Of a DNA stretch of 64,000 nt, positions 36,301 through 39,300 are shown one piece after another. Position 1 is the stretch's first letter. The number at the start of each line of letters is the position of its first letter. The position numbers were made by a program. The DNA is taken from NCBI RefSeq assembly GCF_057098645.1, contig NZ_CM169472.1; one strand, written 5' to 3'.

Positions 36301-39300
36301 AGCCCGGTAAAGAAGCCATTCTGATGGCATGGAATGTTGAAGAGAGAGCACGATTGTGGCTGGAAGCATGGCGTTTATCATTGTCAGGATGGCACATTTC
36401 TGTTCTTGCTGATCCCATTGAATCGCCGCGCCCGGAACTGTTCCCGACGCAAACATTGATTGTCTGGACAGGCATGGCACCAACGAGAAGGCAAAACGAA
36501 CTTTTACAACACTGGGGTGAGCAAGGTTATAAAGTCATCTTTCATGCCCCCTAATTTCACCTTTATCCCGCCCCTTAGACAGAATGTTATAATCTGAACC
36601 CACAACAGCATTTGTACCGGAGCTGGTCCGTTGCAAAATGCTCACCGGGAGAATTCAGGTAATCCCTCTATCACACTCTGTACATATCACAGCCAAAGGA
36701 CAGACCAGATTGAAGTGGTAAAACCGATCGTGCACACTACGCAGTCTCACAACTAACAAGAGGTTATTATCCTGATGGATCAGGTCGTTGTTTTTCAAAA
36801 GATGTTTGAGCAAGTGAGAAAAGAGCAAAACTTCTCCTGGTTTTATTCAGAATTAAAACATCACCGTATTGCACATTACATTTATTATCTGGCTACGGAT
36901 AACATCAGAATTATTACTCACGATGACACGGTTTTGTTATTAAGAGGAACCAGGAACCTGTTAAAAGTTAGTACGACCAAGAACCCTGCTAAAATAAAAG
37001 AGGCCGCATTGCTTCATATTTGCGGAAAATCTACATTTCGGGAATACTGTTCAACACTGGCAGACGCGGGCGTTTTCCGTTGGGTTACTGATGTTAATCA
37101 TAACAAACGCAGTTACTACGCCATTGATAATACGCTTTTATATATTGAAGATGTAGAAAATAATAAACCATTAATCTAGCTAAAGTTGGATGCTTAAGAA
37201 ATGCTTCATAATTCAGTAAGGCATTAGCATAATGGGAATAAAAGTACAGAGACTATCCCTATGGATGATAAATACTGTCCTTTTATTGCTACCCATAAAT
37301 AATCACCAGGCCAATACTATCAAATTGATATTTGAAATGTGATCACTTGACTTTCTATACGTTATTTTATAACGGTTAACATATTTATAAAACCAACGGG
37401 CGTGCCATACGCCCGTTTTAATACTTAACGCACATGTGTTTTGGTTTAGTCATCATCCAGTTATATGTATTTTAGCCAGGAACAGGTTAAACCTTTCCTA
37501 TATAACTCAAAAATTGAAACCTTATTCTCATGTCATGCTTATATTCATTATTATCGTTATATAAAAAGGCAACCATAATGTTTAGCAAATTGGCACAAAG
37601 TAGCATAAAGGCGATGTTTTAATTACAGGATGTTCAGTCATTTGAATGTATAACATTATAGCTAAACAAATCTAAAACGAAGTGAATAATTTATTGTTTT
37701 CACTAAATCTCATTTTGTTTAACATCCATTGAGATTCCTTGCTTTAAATTTTGTTTTATATAAGCAATCGTTTTAATTAATTTATTTTTTGAAGGGGTAA
37801 TATACTCATATGCAAAATAAAGAAATGAACATCCAAATGAACTATATTAAATACCGTGGGATAAGACATAACAAATGAAGTGGGTAGTAATTGACACGGT
37901 CATTCAACCTACATGCGGCATATCTTTTTCAGCCATATGGGGTGATATGAAAATGATCATCTGGTATCAATCTACTATATTTCTTCCTCCTGGAAGTATA
38001 TTTACACCTGTTAAGCCTGGTATTATCCTTAAGGATAAAGAATATCCTATTACTATTTATAACATTGCGCCATTCAACAAGAATTTATGGAGTTTACTCA
38101 AAAGCAGTCAAGAGTGTCCTCCAGGAGAAAGCGAAATAACAAATAAATGTTTGCATAAGAGTTGTATTATAAAAATATGCCCATATGGGCTCAAGTAATA
38201 GGTTTTATATAAATATGCTCGATATGCTATTAATAATATCCACATAAATAAAACAACGGGCGTGTTATACGCCCGTTTAAATATTTAACACATGTAGAGA
38301 TTACATGTTCTTGATGATCGCATCACCAAACTCTGAACATTTCAGCAGTTTAGCGCCTTCCATCAGACGTTCGAAGTCATAGGTTACGGTCTTCGCGTTG
38401 ATTGCGCCTTCCATACCTTTAACAATCAGGTCAGCCGCTTCAGTCCAGCCCATATGGCGTAACATCATCTCAGCAGAGAGAATAATAGAGCCTGGGTTAA
38501 CTTTGTCCTGACCGGCATATTTCGGCGCAGTACCGTGGGTAGCTTCAAACAGGGCGCATTCGTCACCGATGTTTGCGCCAGGGGCGATACCGATACCGCC
38601 AACCTGCGCTGCCAGGGCGTCAGAAATGTAGTCACCGTTCAGGTTCATACAGGCGATAACATCATATTCAGCCGGACGCAGCAGGATCTGTTGCAGGAAT
38701 GCATCAGCAATCACGTCTTTAATGACGATCTCTTTGCCGGTATTCGGGTTTTTAACTTTCAGCCACGGGCCGCCGTCGATCAGTTCACCGCCAAACTCTT
38801 CACGCGCCAGCTGGTAGCCCCAGTCTTTAAACGCGCCTTCGGTGAACTTCATGATGTTGCCTTTGTGCACCAGAGTCACAGAGTCACGATCGTTAGCAAT
38901 TGCGTATTCGATCGCTGCACGAACCAGACGTTTGGTGCCTTCTTCCGAACACGGCTTAATACCGATACCACAATGTTCCGGGAAGCGAATTTTCTTCACG
39001 CCCATCTCTTCACGCAGGAATTTAATCACTTTCTCGGCGTCGGCAGAGTCAGCTTTCCATTCGATACCCGCATAAATGTCTTCCGAGTTTTCACGGAAGA
39101 TAACCATATCGGTCAGTTCAGGGTGTTTAACCGGGCTTGGGGTGCCCTGATAGTAACGTACCGGACGCAGGCAGGTGTAGAGATCCAGTTCCTGGCGCAG
39201 GGCAACGTTCAGAGAGCGAATACCGCCACCAACCGGAGTGGTCAGCGGGCCTTTAATGGCAACGCGATATTCACGAATCAGATCAAGGGTTTCAGCAGGC

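Follow-up and report, generated by a model that had tools for sequence, protein, structure and literature searches.

At which site does PhoP act on iraM? The gene for the RssB anti-adaptor IraM lies on the plus strand, at 37875..38198, of the DNA analysed here (64,000 nucleotides (nt) of contig NZ_CM169472.1, assembly GCF_057098645.1, hereafter the window), as an open reading frame (ORF) annotated both in the 100%-identical sequence of E. coli O145 RM9872 and in K-12. That PhoP, by controlling iraM, ties Mg2+ and acid sensing to RpoS stability is well established: the part of a review that cites Bougdour 2008 gives the gene as PhoP-dependent, iraM is induced in mgrB mutants, and deletion of phoPQ in Shigella flexneri 301 brings ycgW, a gene that may be of either the iraM type or the iraL type, to 0.09 of the wild-type level. 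This raises two questions. First, is the weak repeat GCTTTAAATTTTGTTTT, which an earlier note had flagged as a possible PhoP box, the site of activation? Second, which other sites upstream of iraM might serve? The flagged repeat (site A) is very probably not the activating box, and comparative evidence points to PhoP sites elsewhere upstream of iraM. From sequence comparison, it is about an even call that PhoP activates iraM via a direct site, D, with or without a reverse site, B, further upstream.

Candidate sites were ranked with a half-site weight matrix derived from nine sites of Shigella flexneri (phoP, yoaE, yrbL, mgtA, icsA, slyB, shf, hdeA and yhiW) that are shifted by phosphorylated PhoP (PhoP-P) in electrophoretic mobility-shift assays (EMSA; Table 5 of PMC5775216) and whose own scores are 9.7-17.3 bits, and by mismatches to the consensus (T/G)GTTTA-N5-(T/G)GTTTA. 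The whole window contains 32 sites with at most two mismatches, against 16.7 expected. The 434-nt AT-rich stretch in front of iraM (37441..37874), for which 0.44-0.54 such sites are expected, has three sites with two mismatches, designated A, B and C (P = 0.013-0.018). No single site upstream of iraM beats shuffled sequences (P = 0.09 for the top score); the fourth-best score there has P = 0.005, being reached in 0.5% of shuffles. It is the cluster of PhoP-like sites, not any single one, that is mildly unusual, and this enrichment, together with the dependence known from the literature, agrees with the earlier note's statement that iraM is induced through PhoP.

Site D (37716..37732, plus strand) has the sequence TGTTTAACATCCATTGA, that is TGTTTA-ACATC-CATTGA, and overlaps the -35 position of the promoter proposed below. 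In the window and in K-12 it has three mismatches (9 of 12 consensus positions matched) and 8.3 bits, and in KFu014-type alleles two mismatches and 10.0 bits. A divergent allele, L016/L024, occupies the same chromosomal place in 30 of 5426 complete E. coli genomes (for example R32_14_1F, which is L024) and is also present on a metagenomic contig; here the site is TGTTTAGCCTCTGTTGA, or TGTTTA-GCCTC-TGTTGA, with a single mismatch and 16.7 bits, as good as slyB or shf. Among eleven aligned E. coli haplotypes (93-100% identity) the first hexamer of D is invariant and the second is either CATTGA or TATTGA, and the first hexamer lies within a 12-nt run that is identical in the window and L016. Site B (37663..37679, minus strand; CGTTTTAGATTTGTTTA, or CGTTTT-AGATT-TGTTTA) is located 36 nt upstream of D. 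With 10.0 bits it is the top-scoring site upstream of iraM and stands just above the weakest validated site (9.7 bits). Its half-sites are unchanged in all eleven haplotypes as well as in L016/L024, changes being confined to the 5-nt spacer, of which two of the five bases differ in L016/L024.

Site D is followed by the 12-nt spacer GATTCCTTGCTT (37733..37744) and by a predicted -10 hexamer, TAAATT (37745..37750, plus strand). From the position of this hexamer, the transcription start is predicted at 37756..37760, most likely at A37758; in K-12 (NC_000913.3, minus strand) this would be about position 1,212,124, 121 nt ahead of the ATG. Within 37441..37874, no direct box but D has a TAnnnT hexamer at an architecture-compatible distance downstream (for D, exactly 12 nt), and this arrangement arises in 0.8% of shuffles of the region. 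In L016/L024 the 12 nt after D and the TAAATT hexamer are free of insertions and deletions, and the spacing is also kept in the eleven haplotypes. The longest blocks conserved between the window and the L016-type allele, 37702..37723 and 37729..37751, jointly span D, the spacer and TAAATT. At 37752 the proportion of variable alignment columns jumps from 12% to 53%, as expected for a promoter-to-leader boundary. The hypervariable leader segment that begins there (37752..37800, plus strand) includes the second hexamer of site A and has 53% of its columns variable and all 15 indel columns, with 6-23% variable columns in its flanks. PhoP would thus bind D in direct orientation, 12 nt upstream of the -10 and in the usual place of a -35, and would also bind B in reverse orientation 36 nt further upstream, with site A covering the -10 TAAATT and the start near 37758.

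Several points weigh against activation through D. D, as it stands in the window and in K-12, does not reach the score of the weakest validated site, and CATTGA makes a poor second hexamer. TAAATT agrees with the consensus at only four of six positions, and its role as a -10 is predicted from spacing and conservation. The score threshold of the 0.8% shuffle test was picked after D had been seen, and the matrix was built on only nine sites. The distance from B to D, 36 nt, differs from the 30 nt found in ybjX. In L016/L024 the same promoter would drive a ymgB-like gene of no known PhoP control. Lastly, ymgK and iraM are co-induced by azidothymidine (AZT), so some transcription of iraM may come from a promoter in front of ymgK. 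A full-text literature search, with the primary papers on iraM regulation outside its reach, returned no paper mapping a PhoP site, a footprint or a chromatin immunoprecipitation signal at iraM; the tables of Kim 2012 have no entry for iraM or its coordinates; ycgW/iraM is not listed in the supplements of Harari 2010; and the AppY and Genes Dev papers contain nothing on the iraM promoter.

Is site A, then, a PhoP box at all? It lies on the plus strand at 37741..37757 (GCTTTA-AATTT-TGTTTT), 118-134 nt upstream of the iraM ATG (37875), and overlaps both the predicted -10 and the predicted start site. The earlier note had placed the repeat at about 37741..37758 and the bases are exactly as it described them; what does not stand is the repeat as an above-chance single site. 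Site A matches 10 of 12 consensus positions, with two mismatches. From the expected mean of 0.44-0.54, at least one such site would occur in roughly 35-40% of comparable regions, and site A alone is no better than chance in a region of 27-30% G+C. The match is also degenerate, as had been said of it: with 6.7 bits, site A is the weakest of the four PhoP-like sites upstream of iraM (B 10.0, D 8.3 and C 6.9 bits), ranks 51st in the whole window by the weight matrix, and scores below all nine EMSA-validated reference sites. The box with which it had been compared, at 44151..44167 in front of phoP (GGTTTATTTAATGTTTA), is as clear as claimed, being a perfect match (12 of 12) followed by 12 nt and then by CATAAT.

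The comparison of alleles leads in the same direction. In the K-12 clade, the substitution G37753A turns the second hexamer of site A into TATTTT, which leaves three mismatches (9 of 12), a score of 0.2 bits and no position-2 G in either hexamer. Among the 5426 complete E. coli genomes, the 40-mer with the G allele is found exactly in 1923 and that with the A allele in 1341, so that the A allele makes up about 40% of the complete genomes with this site A 40-mer; the base is freely polymorphic. In L016/L024 a 5-nt deletion removes the second hexamer altogether. Save for the G/A polymorphism, site A is invariant in the eleven E. coli haplotypes. Its conserved part, TTTAAATTT, which is an exact run kept also in L016, coincides with the predicted -10, and its conservation is explained because the predicted -10 itself lies there. 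No TAnnnT hexamer is found 11-13 or 21-23 nt downstream of site A. In short, the score of site A is outside the range of bound sites, its position is not that of an activating architecture, and its half-sites are not conserved. From these comparisons, the likeness of site A to a PhoP box is probably due to chance, the repeat lying within the predicted core of the iraM promoter.

It may still be asked whether site A could be the activating box, as in the earlier note's reading; transcription would then start some 25-30 nt downstream, for example from the hexamer TTTAAT at 37772..37777. The direct orientation of the repeat, its two mismatches, its near-invariance within E. coli and the position of TTTAAT 14 nt downstream would all suit such a promoter. 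However, the spacer and the -10 would then fall in the hypervariable, indel-rich segment, and K-12, the very strain with demonstrated PhoP control, is the one in which site A is reduced to three mismatches with neither hexamer carrying the position-2 G. The score under that of every validated site, the A allele in so many genomes, the deletion in L016/L024 and the missing TAnnnT speak against it as well, and we consider this possibility highly improbable. Because the G is lost in K-12, the second hexamer is deleted in L016/L024, no compatible -10 is present and the site overlaps the -10 derived from D, site A is probably not a functional box.

How do D and B compare with PhoP promoters of known layout? 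Zwir et al. 2012 (PMC3335776) mapped 23 Salmonella PhoP promoters. In their architectures I and II, 12 nt separate a direct box from the -10 that follows it; architecture II has a further box upstream, which in ybjX is reversed and stands 30 nt from the first. The direct box of architectures III and IV is placed 21-23 nt before the -10. In architecture V a reverse box precedes the -10 by 30-58 nt, and a second box either covers the -10 or follows the start. Promoters of acquired genes belong to architectures II, IV and V (PMC3335776). The layout of D and B is like that of architecture II, the two-box type typical of horizontally acquired, AT-rich PhoP-activated genes of Salmonella, with D at 12 nt, B upstream and reversed as in ybjX, a G+C content of 27-33% and repeats resembling attachment (att) sites on both sides. 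The boxes of iraM are, however, much weaker (8.3 and 10.0 bits) and stand 36 nt rather than 30 nt apart, and for iraM the start and the binding are predicted only. The phoP promoter of the window itself (architecture I, 44151..44185) has in common with the proposed iraM promoter a direct box, a distance of exactly 12 nt, a -10 hexamer and no recognisable -35, but its box is complete (12 of 12) and alone, whereas D matches 9 of 12 positions and appears to need a partner site. Salmonella iraP (architecture IV; Tu et al. 2006, Zwir et al. 2012) is a PhoP-induced RssB anti-adaptor gene as well and stabilises RpoS in low Mg2+; its protein is unrelated to IraM and its direct box is 21-23 nt from the -10.

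Architecture V (ugtL, pagK, pgtE, mgtC, pagC, pipD) deserves separate attention, since site A, like the second box of ugtL, lies over a -10, here a predicted one. Yet 65 nt separate the reverse box B from TAAATT, and 40 nt separate it from another hexamer, TAACAT (37720..37725), and neither figure is among the reported distances; the distances of 47-49 nt seen in iraL-type relatives of iraM are those of mgtC and pagC. One could imagine that B activates from TAACAT, 40 nt downstream, with a start near 37732, while D, which overlaps that -10, modulates or represses, an arrangement like that of architecture V, where the reverse box upstream has a partner that covers the -10. In its favour, B is the best-scoring and best-conserved site, iraL-type relatives of iraM use a reverse box, and a TAnnnT at 37720..37725 is kept in all alleles (TAACAT, TAATCT, TAATAT or TAGCCT). 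On the other hand, the gap of 40 nt differs from the 47-49 nt of the relatives and does not amount to a half-integral number of helical turns, L016 does not keep the candidate -35, TTTTCA, and the conserved block 37729..37751 would be placed in the leader, where its conservation would be unexplained. This arrangement therefore seems quite unlikely to us.

The small ORF ymgK (37578..37622, plus strand; 14 codons) is annotated upstream of the proposed promoter, and the tagged YmgK protein has been detected (VanOrsdel 2018). All E. coli haplotypes examined encode the same YmgK peptide, but in the L016 allele the frame is not kept. In a published RNA-sequencing table, ymgK and iraM are induced 96-fold and 39-fold, among the top LexA-independent AZT-induced genes, and the neighbouring ycgZ-ymgA-ariR-ymgC genes are also among the top induced, a pattern that hints at co-transcription or regional de-silencing. 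PhoP could act elsewhere or indirectly: at a promoter preceding ymgK, perhaps using the reverse site C and giving a long transcript through ymgK and iraM, or, without binding any of the repeats described above, through another regulator or by relief of H-NS silencing. As ymgK is translated, a promoter exists upstream of 37578. Site C (37488..37504, minus strand; TATATAGGAAAGGTTTA; two mismatches, 6.9 bits) lies upstream of ymgK and 35-47 nt upstream of three -10-like hexamers, and all candidate PhoP boxes at iraM are weak. iraM is also reported to be H-NS-silenced (Battesti 2012). Against such a route, site C is not conserved, its GGTTTA hexamer being altered in K-12 and other alleles; the ymgK-iraM module is set apart from ycgX and ymgL by a hairpin with a T-run (37395..37421); and the geometry and conservation of D and B would be hard to explain without function. 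We regard a route of this sort as unlikely, and activation through D, with or without B, is kept as the preferred explanation.

The surroundings of the gene bear on that preference. Over the 921 bases around site A, identity is 100% with E. coli O145 RM9872 and 95% with K-12. ycgX (36775..37179) and ymgL (37232..37342) lie on one side and icd (38301..39551), convergent with iraM, on the other; the e14 prophage that K-12 carries between iraM and icd is absent from the window. The intergenic region has 27-33% G+C. Two copies of a 43-nt direct repeat, 86% identical and 860 nt apart, mark the left edge (37390..37432) and the right edge (38250..38292, the icd terminator region) of the ymgK-iraM module; each copy holds a G+C-rich hairpin, and both score as terminator-like. 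Genomes that lack iraM keep only the icd-proximal copy, about 1450 complete genomes matching that copy alone, and in ZH193, which has this copy only, genes for a phage integrase and an excisionase immediately adjoin icd. The module has the look of a leftover from an element that had inserted at the attachment site of icd. A two-box architecture is plausible here because the low G+C content and the att-like flanking repeats fit the class of acquired genes. A search of 37180..38320 against Rfam gave nothing above any family's gathering score.

The divergent allele offers a view of how this promoter may have come to stand before iraM. The order in L016/L024 is bluF, bluR, ycgX, a region about 70% identical to 37489..37846, a YmgB/AriR-family gene and an iraM relative; the YmgB/AriR-family gene, intact with 84 codons (Pfam PF10798), thus stands between the iraM-type promoter and the iraM relative (L024 2501..3765). 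The relative is 73% identical and has its own iraL-type upstream region with a reverse PhoP box of two mismatches. In the window, an upstream ORF of 22 codons (37810..37878, plus strand) ends in a TGA that overlaps the iraM ATG as ATGA, and a Shine-Dalgarno-like run, GAAGGGG, is found 12 nt upstream of the ORF. The ORF is intact in K-12, with several amino-acid changes, and its DNA shows homology to the opening codons of the YmgB-family gene in L016/L024. This homology suggests that the ORF is the 5' remnant of a ymgB/AriR-like gene whose promoter and start were fused to iraM by a deletion, and translation of IraM may be coupled to it.

Do PhoP boxes also accompany the relatives of iraM? Homologues of IraM that are 50-73% identical occur in E. 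coli and E. albertii. In five divergent upstream regions of the family, a reverse PhoP box lies 45-49 nt upstream of a conserved TATACT-type -10 (L003 2389..2405; L014 1388..1404; L016 1390..1406; L017 1389..1416; L021 about 775..791). The box of L014 is perfect (TGTTTATTCTTTGTTTA, P = 0.0013), that of L003 has one mismatch (P = 0.045), and those of L016, L017 and L021 have two each; in iraL of strain CFT073 the reverse box is TGTTTATTGTTTATTTA. The position of the family -10 is fixed by the start site of iraL (ACATCACCAGCAAGG...), published in a paper that does not discuss PhoP. The L003-type promoter occurs in 1435 complete E. coli genomes. By comparison with L003, the box region is missing from the L020 variant, and a distant group (L019, L022 and L023) has only degenerate remnants of a box. 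Predicted PhoP boxes thus recur across the IraM/IraL family, and iraL may be PhoP-regulated. The iraM upstream region was also aligned directly to the iraL-type upstream regions; the promoters proved not alignable and the alignment unreliable, so that it was set aside as a hint only.

With regard to distribution, a single-protein scan of species-representative genomes found no iraM, and an alignment-based scan of such genomes found only the iraL-type gene of E. albertii and a K-12-like contaminant contig in Oceanospirillum. The latter (L004, NZ_MTSD02000045.1, of Oceanospirillum linum ATCC 11336) is a 558-bp low-coverage contig that carries the K-12 alleles at the variable sites upstream of iraM and at the iraM start, and is almost certainly E. 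coli contamination. iraM proper appears confined to E. coli, and probably Shigella. When the IraM of the window (37875..38195) was searched with hmmscan against Pfam-A, no family was found at E <= 0.001; at odds with this, precomputed tables assign IraM relatives to PF11183, the family of PmrD, a PhoP-activated connector protein.

Two further observations were made in passing. In L014, the IraM homologue (1501..1836; 70% identical) that has the perfect reverse PhoP box upstream lies between Shiga-toxin (Stx) genes, with products of the SLT_beta and RIP families, and a gene for a NanS-p-like esterase (neighbouring genes at 2164..3336 and 1..1234). Judged from these neighbours, it sits in an Stx prophage, next to stxAB. 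In the window, a PhoP-box match with one mismatch, TGTTTATGCCTGGTTGA, at 24683..24699 has the second-best score of the window (17.4 bits). It is located in the gap after an 88-codon ORF (24246..24512), which itself follows a 270-codon ORF; these two ORFs, the 270-codon one and the 88-codon one, may be minD and minE.

The link between PhoP and iraM was already known and the proposed architecture is of a kind already described, so the finding is an ordinary one; its main product is a specific, easily tested prediction of a start site and two boxes. Correct placement of the box matters for the design of promoter mutants and reporters, and a consensus match alone is misleading here, given that the best-placed site, D, has the most mismatches in this strain. 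If D is the box, the G/A polymorphism at 37753 lies just downstream of the predicted -10 and before the predicted start, and not in a PhoP half-site. Taken jointly, and held tentatively at somewhat less than even probability, the evidence would mean that the promoter now in front of iraM, with roughly the first 13 codons behind it, belonged to a ymgB/AriR-like gene still intact in the minority allele and was fused to iraM by a deletion, the resulting 22-codon ORF being translationally coupled to iraM, and that, independently, the whole IraM/IraL family, with the iraL of uropathogenic strains and the copy beside stxAB in Stx prophages, is wired to PhoP through boxes in different architectures. 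If this is true, iraL would be PhoP-regulated and not simply constitutive in log phase.

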